Positions 1 through 9,692 of a stretch of 32,957 nt of DNA are shown here, piece after piece; the first letter of the stretch is position 1, and the number at the start of each line of letters is the position of its first letter. Location: positions 1-32,957 of IMG/VR virus record IMGVR_UViG_3300017913_001570. One strand, written 5' to 3'. The notes under the pieces are model-generated. The model was not told the DNA's origin. It searched no databases and saw only the letters and a program-made list of their open reading frames with translations. Origin of the DNA: a virus (lineage: Duplodnaviria; Caudoviricetes). The position numbers and the translations under genes are program-made.

Positions 1-33
1 AACAAAGATACATATGTGATTGAAAATGTCTAG
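1..33 (+). CDS. 3' end of an upstream gene (partial, ...NKDTYVIENV*)
   Basis: Frame 1 is open from the window edge to TAG at 31-33 and overlaps the next ATG at 26. Confidence 0.35.
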   Translation, partial: NKDTYVIENV

Positions 34-697
34 AAAAATATTTCCAAAAGCATTCCTTATAGGATGTGACAAAGAAACCGAGTGGATGCTTGAGTGGTTC
101 CTAAAGAACTACAAATTCCACGGTAATGAAACAAAGTTAATGTTTGCCGACTTTGGTGTGAGTCCAAGGAAGGCAACTATGATCGACAACAATTCATTGT
201 TCCTCGGTCGTATGGAAATGGTAGCCAAGAATCCACAACACAGTAATTGGTTCCTGAAGCCAGAAGCAATGTGGTTTGCTCCTGTGGAAAAATGTATTTG
301 GTTGGACTTGGACATCGAGGTAAAAACAAACATAGATGATATGTTCGAGTACTTAGTGCCTGACAAACTGTGTATGGTTGAGGATAAACCTTGGACCAAA
401 CGCCGTGGTGAGGTTTGGCATAACTCTGGTGTAGTTGGGTTTATACATAAACCACGTATTCTGAAAGATTGGGCTTTAAAAACATCTGGTGGTAAACATG
501 GTCAAGTAGGAGACCAAGAGGTGTTACACTCTATGTTAAATCCAATCACAAAGATTACTTACGTGCATGATTTGCCAAACAAGTACAACGTTGTAAGGCT
601 ACAGGTAGAGCACGATGATTATAAAGGTCCTATCAGCTGTATGCACTGGACCGGTAAAAAAGGTAAGGAAAAGATTAGGGAGATGATGGATGCCTAG
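26..697 (+). CDS. GT-A fold glycosyltransferase (GT8-like)
   Basis: DxD motif WLDLDIEV, plus HNSGVV, GDQEVL, YNVVR and C-terminal MHWTGKKGK typical of GT8-like enzymes; ATG at 26 preferred over TTG at 20. Confidence 0.75.
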   Translation: MSRKIFPKAFLIGCDKETEWMLEWFLKNYKFHGNETKLMFADFGVSPRKATMIDNNSLFLGRMEMVAKNPQHSNWFLKPEAMWFAPVEKCIWLDLDIEVKTNIDDMFEYLVPDKLCMVEDKPWTKRRGEVWHNSGVVGFIHKPRILKDWALKTSGGKHGQVGDQEVLHSMLNPITKITYVHDLPNKYNVVRLQVEHDDYKGPISCMHWTGKKGKEKIREMMDA

Positions 698-1289
698 AGT
701 TGCTCATATTGTCGGAAACGGCGACATGGCTGACTTGTATAACAAGGAAACACGGAAGGGGTTAACACTTACCTGTAACCTACCTCCGTTTCCTGTTAAA
801 GCATATGCTACTGCTATTGTTGATTTTAAGTTTACCAATGCTATTGACAAAGGTGAAATAACCGTACCTGGGGAATGGATTATGGGTGTCAGACCTAAAG
901 CATACTGTGAGAGGTTCCCTGCTTTCCAGATGAGGGTTGCTTCTCAGATAAAAGAGTTCTATACAAAGAAACCAAAGTATGCAAAGAACTACACTGACTT
1001 TAACTGTGGACACTTTGCCACATATTGGGCTCTTGAAAAAGGAAAGGCTGATGTGGTGCACCTATATGGTTTTGATAGTGTTTTTGATTTTAATCTACGC
1101 TCATATTCGGACCTTATTCTAAATTCTGATCGTGGTAATATGAACAACAATAGACTAATCGAGAACTGGCGACCCATCTGGGAAGGCATGTTTGATGAGT
1201 TTAAGGATACCGAGTTTGTATTTCATCACAAGCACGATGCCATAAAAATGAATAAACCAGAAAATGTACGCATTGAAGTAAATAAATGA
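690..1289 (+). CDS. Putative sugar-nucleotide transferase (GT29 sialyltransferase-like / MAF_flag10-DUF115-like)
   Basis: N-terminal HIVGNG, then CN, IVD, NCGHFA and LYGFD motifs; overlaps the upstream GT gene. Confidence 0.5.
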   Translation: MPRVAHIVGNGDMADLYNKETRKGLTLTCNLPPFPVKAYATAIVDFKFTNAIDKGEITVPGEWIMGVRPKAYCERFPAFQMRVASQIKEFYTKKPKYAKNYTDFNCGHFATYWALEKGKADVVHLYGFDSVFDFNLRSYSDLILNSDRGNMNNNRLIENWRPIWEGMFDEFKDTEFVFHHKHDAIKMNKPENVRIEVNK

Positions 1290-1318
1290 TTTACATTTTA
1301 AATCAAATGTGATATAAT
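1290..1318 (+). promoter_or_regulatory. Early/sigma70-type promoter
   Basis: TTTACA (1290-1295), 17-nt spacer ending TGTGA, TATAAT (1313-1318). Confidence 0.8.
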
Positions 1319-1324
1319 AGTATT

Positions 1325-1744
1325 ATGATTGCAGTTGAACTAAATGGTGGGACTAACGAAGAGCGCGACCTTGCTTGTAAGGCCGTGTTCTTTGCTTTAA
1401 AGTTCCTGATGCCTAGAAAACAGAACCTAGAAATAGACCTAAACATAACAGACCTTGAAGGTGATGTTGATGGGTTCCAATGTTGTATAGATAAGGGTGA
1501 ACACGAAATAGAGATCCAACAGGGTCTTATCGAAGAGGACTTTATCACTGCAATCTTCCACGAGATGGTTCATGTTAGACAACACGAACGTGGTTTACTA
1601 AAGGACCACGGCATCCGTAAATCGTGGAAGGGTGAGGAATACCTAGGTATCTATGACACCGTTGATACCTACAAGAACCTACCTTGGGAGGAAGAGGCGT
1701 ATCGTCTACAAGAGGAGATGTACACAAAATGGATACAGATGTAA
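1325..1744 (+). CDS. Small zinc metallopeptidase-like protein (HExxH zincin)
   Basis: IFHEMVHVRQ motif and downstream PWEEEA third-ligand motif. Confidence 0.7.
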   Translation: MIAVELNGGTNEERDLACKAVFFALKFLMPRKQNLEIDLNITDLEGDVDGFQCCIDKGEHEIEIQQGLIEEDFITAIFHEMVHVRQHERGLLKDHGIRKSWKGEEYLGIYDTVDTYKNLPWEEEAYRLQEEMYTKWIQM

Positions 1745-1875
1745 ATATCTATAAAAGACAGATGCAAGAAGAAGTCAAAGAGAAATATATCTTGTATAAA
1801 AGAATTGATGAGTTAAATAAAGAAATACAGAAGCTCAAAGATCGGCTATATAAACTAGAAAATAAAAAAAAGTGA
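1729..1875 (+). CDS. Small coiled-coil hypothetical protein (48 aa)
   Basis: ATG at 1729 after GAGGAG; heptad-like Leu/Ile pattern. Confidence 0.6.
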   Translation: MDTDVNIYKRQMQEEVKEKYILYKRIDELNKEIQKLKDRLYKLENKKK

Positions 1876-1884
1876 AAAAAACAC

Positions 1885-1913
1885 TTTACATGCACAGAGT
1901 TTTATGATATAAT
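1885..1913 (+). promoter_or_regulatory. Early/sigma70-type promoter
   Basis: TTTACA (1885-1890), N17, TATAAT (1908-1913), upstream A-tracts. Confidence 0.8.
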
Positions 1914-1941
1914 AGTACTATAATAATTGAGGAGCTAAATT

Positions 1942-2256
1942 ATGGAACAGAAACTTTACGATCATATCATGGAACAACGTGCTGAAGCAGAAGCATTTAC
2001 TGCAGCTGCCCCTGGTAACTTTATGGGAATGCTTCCACATCCAGACGAATTTGTTTATTGGTCAAGCCGCGTGCCATCTGGCACAATGGCCGAGTTTGAA
2101 CGTGTTGAACTCGAAGAGTCTGCATATTACATGGCAGCGGATGCTATGAGTAAAACATATGCTCGTTCATTGGATTTCAGTAAACTGACCAATGATGAAC
2201 TAGTTAATTTTTGTGCCCAAATGGGATTGTTAATGAAAGCGGATGCTGCACAATGA
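1942..2256 (+). CDS. Hypothetical protein
   Basis: 104-aa ORF with strong SD GAGGAG, first gene after the promoter. Confidence 0.8.
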   Translation: MEQKLYDHIMEQRAEAEAFTAAAPGNFMGMLPHPDEFVYWSSRVPSGTMAEFERVELEESAYYMAADAMSKTYARSLDFSKLTNDELVNFCAQMGLLMKADAAQ

Positions 2257-2474
2257 CACCGTTTGGGTTTTTAGAGTTTGAGGTAGACGGTTGGCAATAC
2301 CGTATTGAGCATGATGATGATCCAGTGGATCGGACTCGTAAGCTCTGGCACTGTCTTGTTGATCCAGATGGTGCACATTACTACCGAGAAATTGACGAAG
2401 CAATGGGTCCATATAAAAAAGCTTCTATGCAAGAGGTGAAGGACATCATTGCACATATCAGTTTTCAGTCATAG
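2253..2474 (+). CDS. Hypothetical protein
   Basis: ATG at 2253 in ATGA overlap with the upstream stop. Confidence 0.7.
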   Translation: MTPFGFLEFEVDGWQYRIEHDDDPVDRTRKLWHCLVDPDGAHYYREIDEAMGPYKKASMQEVKDIIAHISFQS

Positions 2475-2512
2475 TCTTACATACGGTTGGACGATAGAAG
2501 ATTATGACTGGA
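2464..2512 (+). other. Long RNA stem-loop
   Basis: CAGTCATAGTCTT (2466-2478) pairs with AAGATTATGACTG (2498-2510), 13 bp with one G-U; no U-tract follows. Confidence 0.6.
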
Positions 2513-2514
2513 CC

Positions 2515-2572
2515 GGTTTTCCTGCGAGGTAGAGCAACTTAGCTCCTCTCTCATGCTCCCTCGTGGGAAACC
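2515..2572 (+). ncRNA. Candidate sRNA hairpin with anti-Shine-Dalgarno loop
   Basis: Stems 2518-2529/2559-2570 and 2532-2536/2554-2558 close the 17-nt loop ACTTAGCTCCTCTCTCA. Confidence 0.45.
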
Positions 2573-2573
2573 T

Positions 2574-2581
2574 TATAAATA
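2574..2581 (+). promoter_or_regulatory. T4-type late promoter
   Basis: Exact TATAAATA, intergenic; followed by GGAT as at 12366 and 20548. Confidence 0.75.
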
Positions 2582-2585
2582 GGAT

Positions 2586-2740
2586 AGTCTTGGACACGCA
2601 GACTTTAAAGTGAGGTGGGATTAGGTGGAAGCCCTATATAACAAAAGGAGAATGCACCCAGTACCATTAAGTATACGCTGGCTCTGCTCAATTTAAGGGT
2701 GATGCCTCAATACATCCGCGGTGGCCAACGGTTAGCCACC
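2586..2740 (+). ncRNA. Candidate structured ncRNA or long structured 5' leader
   Basis: Starts at the expected late TSS; several short helices, a GGAA tetraloop, a possible pseudoknot and terminal hairpin GGTGGC/GCCACC; no credible ORF. Confidence 0.45.
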
Positions 2741-2760
2741 AACAACCCTTGGAGAAACTA

Positions 2761-2976
2761 ATGATTGAAGGCATTTTATTTTTAGGTCTAGTTGCTTGGA
2801 CCAACGCAGATTTTTTCAACACAAAAGTTGAACACGAGGCAAACGGGTACACATATTGGGAAAAGCTAGAGCCGTGTAGAGCTCCAAGTACTGAACCAGG
2901 TGTATACTCAATGCCAATTGAAACACCAATCGGGAACAAGTATGTATGCTACAAACAGGTGAAACGCCCAGACTAA
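2761..2976 (+). CDS. Small exported or membrane-anchored hypothetical protein
   Basis: ATG at 2761 after GGAG; hydrophobic N-terminus (ILFLGLVAW); two Cys. Confidence 0.65.
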   Translation: MIEGILFLGLVAWTNADFFNTKVEHEANGYTYWEKLEPCRAPSTEPGVYSMPIETPIGNKYVCYKQVKRPD

Positions 2977-3113
2977 ACCTAGGAGATTATCTTCTTTGTA
3001 TTGGGACAGCGTGGTTAATTACACAGTCTATATTCCTTGGAAGTATATTCTGGTTTGTAATTGGCTATATGTTCTTTATCAACTATGCTGTATGGAGACG
3101 TGAAAGTGTCTGA
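2946..3113 (+). CDS. Small hydrophobic membrane protein (55 aa, below ORF-track cutoff)
   Basis: MLQTGETPRLNLGDYLLCIGTAWLITQSIFLGSIFWFVIGYMFFINYAVWRRESV*; fills the gap and overlaps both neighbours. Confidence 0.55.
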   Translation: MLQTGETPRLNLGDYLLCIGTAWLITQSIFLGSIFWFVIGYMFFINYAVWRRESV

Positions 3114-3369
3114 CGATGATTTTGATTTCGGCTTTACAGCCGTAGACGAGCACGAACTTGAAGTCGTAAAAAAGAAGCAGGATGTCATTGACCAACTAGA
3201 TGTTGGACAGAATGTCACTCAAGATAAACTTGATAAACTCTATAATGCCATCACACCTCTACTCAACAACCTAAAAGCAAACCCAGAGAAGGAATATATT
3301 CTCTGGCCTAATCGGGTTGCAAAGGTAGATCAGTTTGAAGAAAAACTGAGAAAAATTTACAATTCATAG
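3106..3369 (+). CDS. Hypothetical protein (DFGFTAVDE type)
   Basis: GTG start 8 nt after GGAG; DFDFGFTAVDEHEL and YILWPNR motifs, which I recall from T4-like phage hypotheticals. Confidence 0.7.
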   Translation: MSDDDFDFGFTAVDEHELEVVKKKQDVIDQLDVGQNVTQDKLDKLYNAITPLLNNLKANPEKEYILWPNRVAKVDQFEEKLRKIYNS

Positions 3370-3379
3370 CATTTTTTTG

Positions 3380-3408
3380 TTTACATCTTTAGTTTTTTGT
3401 GATATAAT
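3380..3408 (+). promoter_or_regulatory. Early/sigma70-type promoter
   Basis: GTTTACA, N17 ending TGTGA, TATAAT (3403-3408). Confidence 0.8.
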
Positions 3409-3437
3409 ATTTACATAATGAAAAGAGGAGTGACATT

Positions 3438-3683
3438 ATGCAGACTAAAGCAGAACGTATGGCTATGATTCGTGAAGCCTCAAAAAAGTTTACTAAAAAA
3501 CTTGAGCGTAACCAACGTGTCCGTAAGACCGAAACAGAGTCTTACTTGCCGTATGGATACCCTGCATCTAAGGGTTACGATGATGTTAATATCAATCATT
3601 GGACCGATGCTTCTAAGTATGCGGAGGAATATTATGGTGAGGCTATGCGCAACACTACTCGTTATGATAACGATTGGAACTGA
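3438..3683 (+). CDS. Hypothetical protein
   Basis: 81-aa ORF with SD GAGGAG after the promoter. Confidence 0.75.
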   Translation: MQTKAERMAMIREASKKFTKKLERNQRVRKTETESYLPYGYPASKGYDDVNINHWTDASKYAEEYYGEAMRNTTRYDNDWN

Positions 3684-3948
3684 GGCTAGTGGATATGCCG
3701 CAGAGCTTGGACAAGAGTGCAAGTATACAAGAACAATAGAGGTTGACAGACATGGTAATACCGTTGGTAACCAGACGTACCATTGCAAAACTGCTCCACG
3801 TGAAATCATTACCAAAACAGAATACAAAGAAGTTGGTACATGTGGCAAGAAGCTTCTATTCGGTTGGGACTGTGATGAATTCCAACCAGAAGGTGACGAC
3901 CTGTCGGCCGTCTTAACTACAATCTATAGTATGGGATTTTTACAATGA
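3634..3948 (+). CDS. Secreted hypothetical protein with signal peptide
   Basis: ATG at 3634 after GGAGG; MVRLCATLLVMITIGTEASGYAA signal-like N-terminus; four further Cys. Confidence 0.65.
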   Translation: MVRLCATLLVMITIGTEASGYAAELGQECKYTRTIEVDRHGNTVGNQTYHCKTAPREIITKTEYKEVGTCGKKLLFGWDCDEFQPEGDDLSAVLTTIYSMGFLQ

Positions 3949-4634
3949 AAAAATTAATTGGTGTCGGTGTGTTATTGACTTTGGCCGCTTGTGCAGATAA
4001 GGTTCCGCCTGATGCGGCTATGTCTGCAGAAGAGTTCAAATATAAAAAGGCTCAAATTGAAGATCAGATTCAGCATATGCCTGACTGGTTTACAGCTATT
4101 CCAGACGAAGAAGATGCTGTGTTTGCGGTTGGTACTGCTATTACACCTGACATGCAGTTGTCTGTTGATATTGCTACATTGTCTGCAAAGACCACATTGG
4201 CTGACCGTATTGATTCCAAGTTGCGGTCACAGATGAAAACATTCAAGGCCAAACTTGGTGCCGATGATTTTGCAAATGAACTTTCACATGAGTTCGAGCA
4301 AGCAACAATTAACATCATTGCCGATGCAGATGTTGCTGGTTATCGTGTAAAAGAAGCTTCTATGGTACCGAACGGTACACAATATCGTGCATATGTTCTG
4401 CTTGAATATACCGACAGCGAAGCATCAAAGATCATGAAGAACCGTTTTGCTCGTGACAAGATGCTTATGTCCAAACTACAGGCCGAGAGTGCATGGTCAG
4501 AACTCAATACTCGAGTTGATAAGATGAACGACGATGAACTAAAAGAAATGAGTATCATTGTTGATGCAATCTCTGATCTACCTGTGCATACTCCTGCTCC
4601 TATTCCTGAAGCACAAATCACTTTACAAAACTAA
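3945..4634 (+). CDS. Lipoprotein (LPP20-like)
   Basis: MKK-hydrophobic-LAAC lipobox; PDWF...FAVGTA and YRAYVLL motifs. Confidence 0.75.
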   Translation: MKKLIGVGVLLTLAACADKVPPDAAMSAEEFKYKKAQIEDQIQHMPDWFTAIPDEEDAVFAVGTAITPDMQLSVDIATLSAKTTLADRIDSKLRSQMKTFKAKLGADDFANELSHEFEQATINIIADADVAGYRVKEASMVPNGTQYRAYVLLEYTDSEASKIMKNRFARDKMLMSKLQAESAWSELNTRVDKMNDDELKEMSIIVDAISDLPVHTPAPIPEAQITLQN

Positions 4635-4650
4635 TAAGGTGTGATATAAT
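4622..4650 (+). promoter_or_regulatory. Early/sigma70-type promoter
   Basis: TTTACA (4622-4627), N17 ending TGTGA, TATAAT (4645-4650). Confidence 0.7.
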
Positions 4651-4821
4651 ATGACTAGGATATTTACAATTCTGATTGTTGCCGGTATTGCCTATTGTAT
4701 AGGCGCTGGTTACACGATAAAGCAGTCTATCACTGCTATCAACAAAACTCTTGATGTCACTATCGAGACTTTGGATAAATCAAATCAGATGTTAAAGGAG
4801 ATGACCGAAGATGATGCCTGA
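4651..4821 (+). CDS. Small single-TM protein (56 aa, below ORF-track cutoff)
   Basis: MTRIFTILIVAGIAYCIGAGYTIKQSITAINKTLDVTIETLDKSNQMLKEMTEDDA*; SD-like AAGGTG upstream. Confidence 0.6.
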   Translation: MTRIFTILIVAGIAYCIGAGYTIKQSITAINKTLDVTIETLDKSNQMLKEMTEDDA

Positions 4822-5005
4822 TATGACTAGTGATCGGATTACGGCCTATCGTGTATTCAAAGGTGAGATTGAAAAGATTATGTTTATGAAAAAATCACCA
4901 CCCGATAATACTAATCCGAATCATATCAGCGGGATTGAGGCCCTCGTTATAGAATATATGCGTAAGCGGATGGCCGACATGATTAGGAAAGGACACAACG
5001 AATGA
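4811..5005 (+). CDS. Hypothetical protein
   Basis: 64-aa ORF, AAGGAG upstream, overlaps both neighbours. Confidence 0.6.
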   Translation: MMPDMTSDRITAYRVFKGEIEKIMFMKKSPPDNTNPNHISGIEALVIEYMRKRMADMIRKGHNE

Positions 5006-5340
5006 CAATGCATATGATTCGTGCCCGTGTGGTACACAAGTCTAAGAAGCATAACCGCAAGCCTGGATGGGAAAAAGCCGAGGCAGAACATCAGGCCTTC
5101 TTGGACAAGATGGGAATCAAGCAAGGTGTCAAGTCCGATTATCGGTATGAAATGCCAAGCTATAAAACCGAGAATAAAATCCCTACCTCGGACTATGTCG
5201 GTAACGGTTTTAAGAAAGCCGCAAAACAATACACTGGTGATGAACTTGCCGGGATTGGTACACTACATAAAAGCAACATGGTTCCAATTCGTAAAGACTC
5301 TAATGATGCAAAAGAAATAGCTCGTATGAGGAGAGGATAA
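5002..5340 (+). CDS. Conserved basic hypothetical protein of T4-like phages
   Basis: C-terminal YTG...GIGTLHKSNMVP motif; ATGA overlap. Confidence 0.7.
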   Translation: MTMHMIRARVVHKSKKHNRKPGWEKAEAEHQAFLDKMGIKQGVKSDYRYEMPSYKTENKIPTSDYVGNGFKKAAKQYTGDELAGIGTLHKSNMVPIRKDSNDAKEIARMRRG

Positions 5341-5366
5341 TTATTGTCTCAGTACGATAAAAACAC

Positions 5367-5395
5367 TTTACAATTACTTAAAAATGTGATATAAT
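5367..5395 (+). promoter_or_regulatory. Early/sigma70-type promoter
   Basis: TTTACA (5367-5372), N17 ending TGTGA, TATAAT (5390-5395). Confidence 0.8.
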
Positions 5396-5429
5396 ATATT
5401 ATGATTCATTTTTGAGAGGAGTAAATCAT

Positions 5430-6560
5430 ATGGCATTACCTAAGAAAACACGTAAGAGAAAAGCATTACCACGTCGTGTCCGTTCAGGCGCTGGTGCTAT
5501 TCCAGTTGACAAAGGTTACGAGTCTGCCAAACAATATATCCATCTGGAAATCCAGAACAAAGACTTGGTGGATATGTTCAAGGCTTATGTCCGTAACAAC
5601 TATTCCAAAGATGAGCTTAAGGCTGTATCTGCTAACCCAGAATACAAGATGTGGAATCATACACACTATGTAACTATTGCGTGGTGGTTAACTATGGAAC
5701 ATCCACGTTGTGAAAAAGTAGAGTATTGGGAACCTAAACTCAAGAACTACATTGCAGACCTAATTAACTCTGGTCTTGCTATTCTGGCTGAGAAAAAAGC
5801 AGAAGTCAAAGAAGATGTCAAGGTTGTATCTTTGTCTCCAATGCAGAGACTACAGAACAAGATTGGCAAAACAATCATGCAAGACCTACTGGATCTAGAA
5901 GACCAGTGGATTGAAGGTGAAAAGACTACACTGGATGTCTACGGTCAGTTCCAAAAGCATGGCCTTCCAGGATCTGCCACGGCTCAAGTCCGTCAGTTAC
6001 TAGAAGGTTGGTTACTTGATTATGAAGATGCTTACCACAAGCGTTGTGAACAGGCTGTTGAGGGTTATTCACACCTTAAACGTCCAGAAATTAATCGCCG
6101 TATTAAAGCTATTCAAGATATGTTATCCGACTTGGATAAAATCAAGAATGCCGCTAAGGCAAAGAAAGCAGTTCGTATGCCTAAGACTAAGTCTGCAGAC
6201 AAACAAGTTGCTCGTGTTCAGTATAAAAAAGAGGACAACGACTACAAGTTGGTCTCTATCCCACCAATACAAATTATTGGTAAACATAGACTGTACACAT
6301 TTGATACCAAGGCTCGTGTTATCAAAGAATTTGTAACCGGCGCCGTAAATGGTTTCCAGATTAGTGGTTCAACACTTAAAGACTTTGATCAAGTCAACAG
6401 CCGTTGTACACGACTACGGAAACCAAATGAGTTTCTGCCTATTGTCCAGGGTAAAACACCTAAACAGATTGACAAAGAGTGGCAAAAACTTACCACAAAG
6501 ACCACGGTTCCAAACGGCCGTATTAACAAAGACACAATCATATTAAGGGTGATGGACTAA
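5430..6560 (+). CDS. Conserved basic hypothetical protein upstream of gp33
   Basis: ATG at 5430 after GAGAGGAG; C-terminal LRKP...NGRINKDTIIL; function not recognised. Confidence 0.8.
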   Translation: MALPKKTRKRKALPRRVRSGAGAIPVDKGYESAKQYIHLEIQNKDLVDMFKAYVRNNYSKDELKAVSANPEYKMWNHTHYVTIAWWLTMEHPRCEKVEYWEPKLKNYIADLINSGLAILAEKKAEVKEDVKVVSLSPMQRLQNKIGKTIMQDLLDLEDQWIEGEKTTLDVYGQFQKHGLPGSATAQVRQLLEGWLLDYEDAYHKRCEQAVEGYSHLKRPEINRRIKAIQDMLSDLDKIKNAAKAKKAVRMPKTKSADKQVARVQYKKEDNDYKLVSIPPIQIIGKHRLYTFDTKARVIKEFVTGAVNGFQISGSTLKDFDQVNSRCTRLRKPNEFLPIVQGKTPKQIDKEWQKLTTKTTVPNGRINKDTIILRVMD

Positions 6561-6808
6561 TGGCTGAAACCGTAGAGGAACAGTTCCTCACAAAGACAAA
6601 GTTTTCCAAGTTGATAGAAGCAACAGTGATAGATAAGTCTATAGGATACATGGAGGCCATTCTTTTGGTATGTGATAAACATAACATTGAACCCGAGGAT
6701 GTCCGCAAGTTTGTATCTCCTATCATCAAGGATAAACTTGAAGCAGAGGCCATGGGATTAAACCTATTGCCTAGAACAAATGCAATTGATTCTGCTCTTT
6801 TTGAGTAA
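6560..6808 (+). CDS. gp33: Late transcription co-activator, T4 gp33-like
   Basis: FSKLIE...YMEAIL..C....IEPE......S..IKDKLEAEAMGLNLL pattern; next to gp32. Confidence 0.85.
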   Translation: MAETVEEQFLTKTKFSKLIEATVIDKSIGYMEAILLVCDKHNIEPEDVRKFVSPIIKDKLEAEAMGLNLLPRTNAIDSALFE

Positions 6809-6814
6809 ATCGTG

Positions 6815-6822
6815 TATAAATA
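6815..6822 (+). promoter_or_regulatory. T4-type late promoter upstream of gp32
   Basis: Exact TATAAATA in the intergenic region. Confidence 0.7.
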
Positions 6823-6824
6823 TC

Positions 6825-6853
6825 TGTACATTACAGTGTACACATGTTATAAT
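6825..6853 (+). promoter_or_regulatory. Early/sigma70-type promoter upstream of gp32
   Basis: TGTACA, N17 with TG, TATAAT (6848-6853). Confidence 0.6.
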
Positions 6854-6873
6854 ACTACAGTAAAATACTACAG
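6851..6873 (+). repeat. Direct repeat AATACTACAG x2 in the gp32 leader
   Basis: Copies at 6851-6860 and 6864-6873. Confidence 0.7.
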
Positions 6874-6891
6874 CAATATAAGGACAATACG

Positions 6892-7803
6892 ATGTCATTC
6901 GAAAACTTAAAACGCAATCGCGACCAAATCTCAAAACTCGTTCAAGCTGCCGAAGCAGCAGGTGGCGGCACCAATGAAAAGAAAAACTATGGTGACGACC
7001 GTCTCTGGAAACCCACAGTAGATAAAGCAGGTAATGGTTATGCCGTACTCCGGTTCCTTCCAGCAAAAGAAGGACAAGAATTACCCTGGGTCCGTTACTG
7101 GGACCATGGATTCAAAGGACCAACCGGTTTATGGTATATCGAAAACAGCCTTACTTCTATTGGTCAACCTGACCCAGTTGGCGAGCTCAACTCCCGTTTG
7201 TGGAATTCAGGTATCGATGCAGACAAAGAAACTGCACGAAACCAAAAACGCCGACTCCATTATGTAGTTAACGCACTTGTTGTGCAAGACCCTGGTAACC
7301 CTGCGAATGAGGGTAAGGTCATGCTATACAAGTTCGGCAAGAAAATCTTTGAAAAGATTATGGATGTAATGCAACCATCTTTTGCCGATGAAACACCTGT
7401 TAATCCATTCGACTTCTGGGATGGTGCAGACTTTAAATTGAAAATCCGAAATGTTGAAGGATACCGTAATTATGATAAGTCAGAGTTTGCAAGCGCATCT
7501 GCTCTCCATGATGGAGATGAATCCAGATTGGAAGCAGTCTATAACCAACTACATGATCTCAGTGAGTTCACCGACCCCAAAAACTACAAGTCATACGACG
7601 AGCTCAAAGCCAAGTTGATGCGTGTGTTGGGTGAGGAAACCGCTTCTGTTGGTGCACCTACCATGGCGCAGACACAGATGGTTAATGAACCAGTTGCTGC
7701 CCCTGAACCTCAGATGATGGAACCCATCACTGCTGAGGAAATGAAAACTGACGATGATGACGATACAATGTCATACTTCGCCAAGTTGGCAAATGAAGAT
7801 TAA
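6892..7803 (+). CDS. gp32: Single-stranded DNA-binding protein, T4 gp32-like
   Basis: DDRLWKP..DKAGNGYAVLRFLPA, WYIENSLTSIG, YKFGKKIF, NPFDFWDGADFKLK, NYDKSEF and acidic C-terminal tail. Confidence 0.97.
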   Translation: MSFENLKRNRDQISKLVQAAEAAGGGTNEKKNYGDDRLWKPTVDKAGNGYAVLRFLPAKEGQELPWVRYWDHGFKGPTGLWYIENSLTSIGQPDPVGELNSRLWNSGIDADKETARNQKRRLHYVVNALVVQDPGNPANEGKVMLYKFGKKIFEKIMDVMQPSFADETPVNPFDFWDGADFKLKIRNVEGYRNYDKSEFASASALHDGDESRLEAVYNQLHDLSEFTDPKNYKSYDELKAKLMRVLGEETASVGAPTMAQTQMVNEPVAAPEPQMMEPITAEEMKTDDDDDTMSYFAKLANED

Positions 7804-9692
7804 TAAGTATCATGAACCGAATCGGTCGCAGAGGTCTCTGCCGCTACAATGGCATTGCGCTCTGTGGCCATTTGGATTAGTCTTCGGTCACTGGCATCTA
7901 GTGCAGTAACACCATAACCTTGAGGCACTGCACCTGTTAAACTCGGCGCCGTTTGTGCTGGTATTGATACAGGTGCGAGTGCTTCATATAAACCCTCTAC
8001 ACCTTTTCTTAAAATATCCAAATCTTCTGTTTTTAGATTTTTGAGGCCTTGGCCAAACCCTGTCTGGCGTGTACCTACCAAATTTGAAAGCCAGTTTGCA
8101 TCATCATCTTGTAATTTACCACCGTTGATCAAGATAGGCAGAATCCTCAATGCACGACCAACATCCATCATTGTCTCTGCAATTCTAGTAGCAAAGGATG
8201 TTCCCATTTCCATGTCAGCAATGTTCTTGAACGAGACAAAGAAACGGTCAAGTGATCCACTTAATCGGTCCATATTGGTAATAATTTCATTGTCAAGAGT
8301 TTTCATTGGTTCTAAACCATCGATCAAAGCTTCAATAGGTGTTCTATTTGCCGCGGCCTTATAATCTGTATTGAACAAGAAATCAACAAAACCTAAGAAA
8401 CCGTCTTGGAAAGGCTTTATTGTTTCATTAAATGTTTTCATCAGATCAGAACCAAAGAATGACATTAGTGCAGAAGATATACCCTCCAAACCTGAACCTA
8501 GGTTATCATCAAACTTAATATCCTCGAATGCCTTAATACCTTCTGCTGTGTTTGTAAGTAACTGTTTAAATCCTTTACCAGGTTCATCTCCAGTTAGTTT
8601 ACCAATTACTTTAACACCAGCATCACCTGCGGCAATGCCAGTAAAGAACGCACCAATACCTAAACCTATAGCGGCAAAACCACCAGCAACTGCAGTTTTA
8701 CCTCCAGGAAATAACCCTGCTAAAACTCCAACACCACCTAGTGCGGTTAATACATCTAGTGTCTTTTGATCGAATGCACTTACTGCCTCACCAAAATTCA
8801 TCATTACGGTCTTTATGGATTCACCGTTTGAGTTCATCCACTGAATAGATTTATCACCACCAGCAATTGCTGCAAAGAAAGCAGCAATACCAACACCGAC
8901 AGCGGCCATTCCAGCAGCCGCCTTTGCAGATTTGCCAATACCAAATACAGCACCAAATGCGGCACTACCAGCGAGTAAACCACCTACAGCTATAAGTTGA
9001 TCATTATTTAAAGCACCTATACCAGCTGCAAAATTTTCTAGGAATGTTTTTAGGCCTTCGCCAGTAGATTCCATTTCGGTTATGGCCATGTCAGCAGCAC
9101 CAAGGGCACTAAAGAAGCCAGCAATACCAATACCTACGGCACCAAGACCCACTACAATGTCACCACCACCAAGGCCTGGCATGGCTGTGAATAAAGCAGA
9201 ACCAGCAAAGAGTGCACCCATTGCTTTTAGATCTCTATCACTAAACGATGCAAGACCAGCGCCTAGGTTTACCATGAGTTTTCTAAGATTGTCACCGGTA
9301 CCAAATTTTTCCATGATACTTTCGGCACCACCTAAAGCCAAGAAGAATGCACCTAGTCCAGCACCAGCGGCTCCCATACCAACACCGAGTCCAGCAAATG
9401 CTCCACCCATGCCCGCAAAGTTCATTTGATTATTTGAACCTATAGTTTTACGGTTGTCTGTTCTACTACGGTCTATACCAACAAATTTACGACTTGTCTC
9501 ACGCTCTTTTTCAAGACGATCACCTTCAGCAGCTTTTTGTGCAATAAAATGTTTTTTCAGAAGTGTAGTCAAGACGGCAACTTCTTGTGCAACGGATAAT
9601 GTTGCAGCGTAGTTTTGGTCCGCTCGGGCCGTCTGGTCTAAATTATTAGCCTTGAGAGCCTTAATTACATCTTCTAATGTTTTTTCAGCCAT
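7800..9692 (-). CDS. Probable tail tape measure protein (functional equivalent of T4 gp29)
   Basis: 630 aa, Gly/Ala-rich helical protein with ~77-79-aa repeats, directly downstream of gp26/gp51. Confidence 0.65.
   Translation of the reverse strand: MAEKTLEDVIKALKANNLDQTARADQNYAATLSVAQEVAVLTTLLKKHFIAQKAAEGDRLEKERETSRKFVGIDRSRTDNRKTIGSNNQMNFAGMGGAFAGLGVGMGAAGAGLGAFFLALGGAESIMEKFGTGDNLRKLMVNLGAGLASFSDRDLKAMGALFAGSALFTAMPGLGGGDIVVGLGAVGIGIAGFFSALGAADMAITEMESTGEGLKTFLENFAAGIGALNNDQLIAVGGLLAGSAAFGAVFGIGKSAKAAAGMAAVGVGIAAFFAAIAGGDKSIQWMNSNGESIKTVMMNFGEAVSAFDQKTLDVLTALGGVGVLAGLFPGGKTAVAGGFAAIGLGIGAFFTGIAAGDAGVKVIGKLTGDEPGKGFKQLLTNTAEGIKAFEDIKFDDNLGSGLEGISSALMSFFGSDLMKTFNETIKPFQDGFLGFVDFLFNTDYKAAANRTPIEALIDGLEPMKTLDNEIITNMDRLSGSLDRFFVSFKNIADMEMGTSFATRIAETMMDVGRALRILPILINGGKLQDDDANWLSNLVGTRQTGFGQGLKNLKTEDLDILRKGVEGLYEALAPVSIPAQTAPSLTGAVPQGYGVTALDASDRRLIQMATERNAIVAAETSATDSVHDTY

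Follow-up and report, generated by a model that had tools for sequence, protein, structure and literature searches.

A conserved hairpin with an anti-Shine-Dalgarno loop behind an early operon of marine T4-like phages and its possible part in early translation

The means by which lytic phages beyond the coliphage models turn off their early genes are still largely open, and one locus of a marine phage raises the question in a specific form: what is the role of a hairpin that lies behind a two-gene early operon and displays a loop complementary to the ribosome-binding site (RBS) of that operon's first gene? The window analyzed here, a stretch of 32,957 nucleotides, is a fragment of an uncultured marine T4-like phage. 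It carries the late regulator gp33 at 6560-6808 and gp32 at 6892-7803, and its gp32 is closest to those of phage C48C1, the Melnitz phages and marine cyanophages.

A hairpin behind a two-gene early operon

A promoter scan of positions 1-8000 yielded five near-identical early promoters of the sigma70 type (TTTACA-type). One of these, a promoter-like site at 1885..1913 that matches 11 of the 12 consensus positions, would drive the operon together with the hairpin, with a transcript start probably near 1920 (all features described are on the + strand unless stated otherwise). The RBS of the first gene lies at 1929..1938 and the gene itself (1942..2256) encodes a 104-aa phage protein of no assigned function; no PHROG or Pfam family matched it above the cut-off and the Atlas matches were to unnamed viral clusters only, while relatives of the protein are present in 11 viral loci. 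The second gene (2253..2474) encodes a 73-aa protein, also of no assigned function and with no PHROG or Pfam family. The hairpin follows in the intergenic stretch at 2515..2572, and a motif at 2574..2581, which we take from T4 biology to be a T4-type late promoter, begins 2 nt past its end; five further copies of this motif occur in the window. The motif lies directly 3' of the hairpin, and a late transcript initiated there would leave the hairpin out. In four seawater RNA libraries of a single study, contigs from a close relative cover the hairpin region, one of them spanning 1897-2724; such assembled contigs cannot show ends, strand, level or a single transcript, and no variation inside the hairpin was seen among them.

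The hairpin folds with 19 pairs at -24.1 kcal/mol, consistent with the stem of about 19 bp in the preliminary description, and it presents a 17-nt C/U-rich loop (2537..2553). Within the loop, 2543-2548 is a CUCCUC core that is conserved among relatives and 2539-2548 is the complement of the RBS at 1929-1938. The core is predicted to be exposed, with an unpaired probability of 0.91. The fold energy of the region 2500-2600 is only modest (z -1.76; 11 of 200 shuffles fold equally well).

We gathered related loci through the neighbouring proteins, independently of the loop, and by two pattern scans. A scan of viral contigs with a 14-nt loop pattern gave 119 loci, of which 8 fold as this hairpin, so that the bare loop is mostly a chance match. 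The fold-based scan of 289 loci gave 115 matches, 107 on the operon strand and 8 on the minus strand. After removal of minus-strand matches, matches inside a 382-aa gene, a second shorter type of hairpin and exact duplicates, and with further copies added, the final set comprised 60 representatives in 12 loop classes from syntenic loci of marine T4-like phages. An alignment of 21 non-coding copies has 96% of its stem cells paired, and 12 of 15 pairs show compensatory, two-sided changes, a level of stem covariation that none of 500 shuffles reached; slid controls dropped to 37-53% paired. The CUCCUC core is nearly invariant across the aligned copies, it is followed by U or A in the loops of the 60 representatives, and its unpaired probability exceeds 0.8 in 58 of the 60 copies, in loops of 11-25 nt (median 17). 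The G-U cells of the aligned stems outnumber the listed A-C cells (17 vs 2), which favours the + strand, albeit the + strand folds more stably in only 39 of the 60 copies.

A model built from these copies found one strong match in each of five family contigs (5/5), two of which belong to loop classes poorly or not represented in the model, and no match in the cultured or named relatives Melnitz and phage C48C1. The hairpin was detected at 63 of 237 loci of the neighbouring 87-aa gene, many of these loci being short or non-syntenic. Rfam 15 gave no match over the hairpin in positions 1-8000 of the window at E<=5 (the best nearby hit reached 14.4 bits against a cut-off of 38), and over 11 related loci it identified tRNAs only. 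Of the 87 records of annotated phages that blastn matched to 1850-2800, the 20 listed include none with a match that covers the hairpin. Searches of open-access text gave no account of the family, and the available parts of a phage sRNA review (PMC12197685, 2025) and of a motif survey (PMC2864571, 2010) describe no such element. The hairpin is a real, conserved and uncatalogued phage RNA structure.

The hairpin is not an intrinsic terminator. Its loop of 11-25 nt, a U-rich tail in only 8 of 58 copies and its absence from the terminator calls of the window led us to reject that assignment; the lack of a U-tract in the other 50 of 58 copies is itself evidence against it.

Two readings would make the conserved loop a matter of protein coding. 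According to the first, the core is a by-product of a Leu-Leu pair in a small hydrophobic protein and the window's hairpin is the relic of such a gene. In 20 of 59 relatives a hydrophobic ORF of 40-80 aa does enclose the hairpin, and its frame is the same each time. In the window, however, an in-frame stop codon just before the loop core leaves no ORF, and the clade of the window, which shares this stop, nevertheless keeps the core and the compensatory stem changes, making the RNA structure the shared feature. The stems of the coding copies, with 15-32 pairs, also go beyond coding need, and the loop-leader covariation described below persists in non-coding classes (p 0.042). We regard this origin as highly improbable overall and, judging from the sequences, as largely refuted for the window's clade. 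The second reading, put forward in the preliminary description as a possible refutation, takes the sequence for the RBS of a minus-strand mini-ORF (MLYLAGKPVQS), and a TTG does stand 5 nt after the minus-strand GAGGAG in the window. A start codon 4-9 nt after the core was found in 21 of the 60 copies, many of them TTG, against an estimated 15-17 by chance; the peptides vary in length and sequence, and the promoter scan found no minus-strand promoter between 1144 and 3322. The mini-ORF is not conserved across the 60 copies and was rejected; we give it next to no credence.

The hydrophobic ORFs that hold the hairpin, for instance the two-helix ORFs L135:2517-2693, L115:2007-2189, L103:433-576 and L116:919-1068, had no protein family above the cut-off, and several of them extend into a tRNA gene at its 5' end. 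At locus L302, two CU-loop hairpins are adjacent. The second, shorter type of hairpin, with a pyrimidine-rich loop (AUUCCUUUC core), was seen in L008 (~3647), L324 (~1387), L393 (~2830) and L302 (~4596), about 40-430 nt after the main hairpin, and its loop would complement an AAGGA-type RBS.

Behind the late promoter, a separate conserved structured element of 55 nt (2586..2640), not part of the hairpin, comprises a short stem, possibly a pseudoknot, and after these another hairpin, which shows compensatory changes. The 18-nt core of the element was found in 65 viral loci, of which 38 are distinct, and in 36 of the 65 a tRNA T-loop motif lies nearby; a Pseudomonas phage record matches the element as well, and Rfam gave no match to it. 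In many relatives a pseudoknot-like conserved RNA of about 90 nt replaces it (L003 ~3050-3140, L004 ~3140-3230, L095 ~1855-1945), suggesting that the slot behind the hairpin holds exchangeable RNA modules. A second conserved structured stretch at 2655-2745, before a 71-aa gene, is kept in many relatives; contigs from the RNA libraries hold partial look-alikes with other flanks, and Rfam gave no match.

Pairing of the loop with early leaders of the window

The preliminary description had listed four sites complementary to the loop and had taken the hairpin for a means of shutting off strong-SD early mRNAs. Its strings were all recovered where it had placed them: the loop at 2537-2553, the 10-nt match of 2539-2548 with 1929-1938, and the shorter complements at 5414-5421, 3424-3430 and 1711-1717. 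The site at 1929-1938 is the sole exact 10-nt complement of the loop in the window, and it forms the best non-self duplex with the loop among 8234 tiled 24-mers from both strands.

We scored the pairing of the loop with gene leaders by RNAduplex together with opening energies. The top three of 36 hand-listed leaders belong to the three leadered first genes behind early promoters: the gene at 1942 (-17.6 kcal/mol, 10 nt), the gene at 5430 (-16.9) and the gene at 3438 (-14.5), followed by the next leader at -12.2. The RBS at 1929..1938 would be the primary target. The RBS at 5414..5421, an 8-nt complement that ranks 2 of 36, serves the first gene behind the early promoter at 5367-5395 and is a predicted secondary target, and that at 3424..3430, a 7-nt complement that ranks 3 of 36, serves the first gene behind the early promoter at 3380-3408 and is a predicted weak secondary target; both are on other transcripts. 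Opening the loop costs only 0.5 kcal/mol and opening the 1929 site 1.9, leaving net pairing energies of -15.2 kcal/mol for 1929, -12.1 for 5414, -10.3 for 3424 and -8.7 for 1711. This last site, the weakest of the four, has no promoter ahead of it and lies inside the end of the ORF 1325-1744, 11 nt before an ATG at 1729.

In this genome alone, the reach of the match beyond the SD core is borderline: with CTCCTC fixed and the flanks shuffled, a match of at least 10 nt arises with probability 0.019 at the 1929 leader and 0.085 at one or another of the three early leaders. The case therefore rests on comparative data. In a fold of 1920-2580 restricted to nested pairs, SD-loop pairing reached 29%.

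The gp32 leader pairs poorly with the loop (-4.1 kcal/mol), as do most late leaders. In the stretches 1290-1325 and 4622-4651, two of the five early promoters stand almost directly before an ATG (genes at 1325 and 4651) that has little or no leader and lacks an SD, which suggests that these early mRNAs are leaderless.

Loop and leader among relatives

To compare loops with leaders across relatives, the cognate target was defined without reference to the loop, as the first ATG with an SD to follow the promoter motif nearest upstream. Such a target was found at 47 of the 60 loci; the other 13 had no identifiable upstream first gene and stand outside the swap test. The upstream first gene often differs between relatives, and it lies 410-1033 nt upstream of the hairpin (median 629, n=39). 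Over the 47 loci, in nine classes, loops match their cognate leaders over 8.72 nt, compared to 7.56 nt for loops of other classes and 6.80 +/- 0.15 nt for the flank-shuffle null. Permutation of the nine classes gave p 0.0015 by length and p 0.0025 by energy, and the four non-coding classes alone gave the p value of 0.042 cited above. The preliminary description had named a loop that is not conserved or not co-varying as grounds for abandoning its proposal; the core is conserved and the flanks track the early leaders.

The covariation is concentrated at the position adjoining the SD core, where 30 of 41 pairs are Watson-Crick (20.8 expected) and 37 of 41 are paired if G-U is included. The pairs there vary by class, a C, U or A of the leader being met by G, A or U of the loop. 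On the other side of the core, position -2 shows a smaller excess (8 vs 4.6), and pairing at positions +2 to +4, -1 and -3 is no higher than expected from column make-up. The loop classes are related, and the tree of the 87-aa marker is too poorly resolved to count independent changes. With so few positions and related classes, the covariation appears to rest on a handful of independent changes; we consider it real but narrow.

Set against the next early gene at 31 loci, the own-operon first gene was the better target in 21, the worse in 4 and level in 6. Among leaders of predicted gene starts from a simple ORF caller, it ranked 1 of 38 in the window, 1 of 107 in contig G001, 1 of 91 in G002 and 8 of 205 in G004, where the top six loop partners are not flagged as early. 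A comparison of early with other leaders gave p 0.11 in G002 and p 0.09 in the window. Early leaders further downstream, too, fit their own loop better than they fit foreign loops (p 0.037 and 0.003), with matches as long as 11 nt in L286 and 13 nt in L290. The TAA class is an exception to the lead of the own-operon gene, since there the downstream early leader beats the own leader (mean -2.2 nt). GAGGAG leaders occur at 33 of 45 loci with the hairpin and at 19 of 38 loci in which no hairpin was detected (p 0.04), an association that is not exclusive. As a separate observation, many cognate leaders (L277, L282, L286, L289, L295) have an additional AGAGAG block that precedes the SD by about 10-15 nt and could pair with the 3' half of the loop; it is missing from the window's own leader.

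These comparisons bear on an alternative that we think unlikely but worth weighing, namely that a protein binds the C/U-rich loop and the hairpin serves in 3' stability, processing or termination. The complementarity to the SD would then be incidental, as GAGGAG is matched by any loop rich in C and U. A protein site would account just as well for a loop that stays fixed while its stem changes; the hairpin stands at the 3' boundary of the operon next to a late promoter, a tRNA or another structured RNA; and cognate loops exceed foreign ones by only about 1 nt. A protein site does not predict, however, that the loop flanks track leaders of the same genome or that the own-operon first gene ranks first in three of four contigs, and the scarcity of U-tracts noted above speaks against the termination variant. 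We assign a lower probability still to a free anti-SD small RNA aimed mainly at strong-SD host mRNAs, which would free ribosomes and touch phage early genes as side targets. The combination of a variable stem and a fixed anti-SD loop resembles the alphaproteobacterial cuckoo RNAs (PMC4615179, as far as that source was available), non-early genes head the G004 list, and most late leaders of the window, which pair poorly, would be spared. Against this stands the covariation of the loop flanks with the phage's own early leaders.

The antisense reading therefore needs a narrower scope than the preliminary description gave it. The complementarity to early leaders and its covariation stand, whereas a general shut-off of early mRNAs with a strong SD claims too much, because two of the five early promoters feed SD-less genes, gp32 pairs poorly and in one relative the two best matches are to genes that are not early.

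Proposed action and comparison with known systems

Antisense control of early translation by the hairpin is likely, the evidence from sequence comparison being good but indirect. In its specific form we hold the proposal to be somewhat better than an even bet: an RNA made with the early transcript would pair with GAGGAG-type early leaders and damp their translation, that of its own operon first. Transcription from the 1885 promoter would yield the hairpin as the 3' part of the early operon. The loop, being exposed, would base-pair with the GAGGAG-type RBS of the operon's first gene and block ribosome loading; weaker pairing may extend to other GAGGAG-type early first genes on other transcripts. 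The pairing could take place by fold-back in cis or in trans, with an RNA that may persist, as a stable 3' piece, after the mRNA is gone. In some relatives the hairpin is followed within about 45-150 nt by a tRNA, whose processing could free the 3' end of the hairpin RNA. We infer the strand and source of this RNA, its stable 3' piece, the pairing and the repression. As infection proceeds, the pairing would damp early protein synthesis but leave gp32, the late genes and the early genes without a leader unaffected. With about 600 nt between the RBS and the hairpin, each transcript could be translated briefly before the brake forms, suggesting a timer or a negative feedback.

We also considered that the loop pairs with early leaders to the opposite effect, protecting or stabilizing the mRNA by shielding the SD from a nuclease or by joining the mRNA ends. 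T4 is reported to cut its early mRNAs in the SD GGAG (PMC3014915, PMC9409239, in the parts available), so that covering this site could alter decay, and the comparative evidence concerns complementarity, whichever sign the effect may have. Competition with 30S binding would nonetheless be expected of a helix that covers the SD, as described for icaR (PMC3868564, in part), and a search for RegB (PF10715) matched none of five related fragments (0/5; 28-84% complete), a result to be read with the failure of the control search to give a match. Protection strikes us as very unlikely.

If repression is the correct reading, a conserved phage RNA reads by base pairing the SD site that a T4 nuclease recognizes, a second solution to the same task found in uncultured marine phages, and the hairpin is a 60-nt module whose loop-to-site rule is directly testable. 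More speculatively, and here we doubt more than we believe, widespread marine T4-like phages may time the early-to-late switch through a single anti-SD hairpin RNA tuned to a private early RBS signature. Such an RNA would be the counterpart of the protein RegB and, where it is embedded in a gene for a small membrane protein, as it would be in about a third of relatives, a dual-function RNA.

Several known systems offer precedents, each compared here from the available parts of its source. In the icaR mRNA of Staphylococcus aureus, an anti-SD motif in the 3'-UTR pairs with the mRNA's own SD and blocks initiation (PMC3868564). The phage locus shares this arrangement, an anti-SD motif 3' of a gene and complementary to the SD of its own operon. 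The icaR unit, however, is a bacterial single-gene mRNA with the motif UCCCCUG and demonstrated coupling to RNase III, whereas we describe a lytic phage operon and a prediction from sequence; the phage motif sits in a conserved 17-nt hairpin loop, the first gene changes between relatives, and possible targets lie on other transcripts. OppZ and CarZ of Vibrio cholerae are 3'-UTR-derived sRNAs, products of RNase E, that inhibit translation of their own operon (PMC7398697). As with these, an RNA from the 3' end of the operon would act on its own transcript in a negative feedback; unlike these experimentally established RNase E products, the phage RNA is predicted, and its pairing region would be the SD core itself.

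The cuckoo (RSs0680/CcsR-type) RNAs of Alphaproteobacteria consist of 2-4 adjacent hairpins, each with CCUCCUCCC (PMC4615179). In these RNAs, as in the phage hairpin, an anti-SD-like loop stays fixed while the stem varies, with many compensatory changes. The phage element differs from them as a single long hairpin with a CUCCUC(U) core, genome-specific flanks and no Rfam match, and we rejected membership in the cuckoo family on both the number of hairpins (one, not 2-4) and the CCUCCUCCC motif (CUCCUC followed by U or A, not CCC). The T4 endoribonuclease RegB, which needs S1, inactivates early mRNAs at the SD GGAG (PMC3014915, PMC9409239). The job and the target proposed for the hairpin, the SD of phage early mRNAs, are the same, but RegB is a protein nuclease whereas the hairpin would be an RNA acting through base pairing. 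Fitting no catalogued family, the hairpin would work in the manner of icaR or of OppZ and CarZ, and would do the job of RegB.
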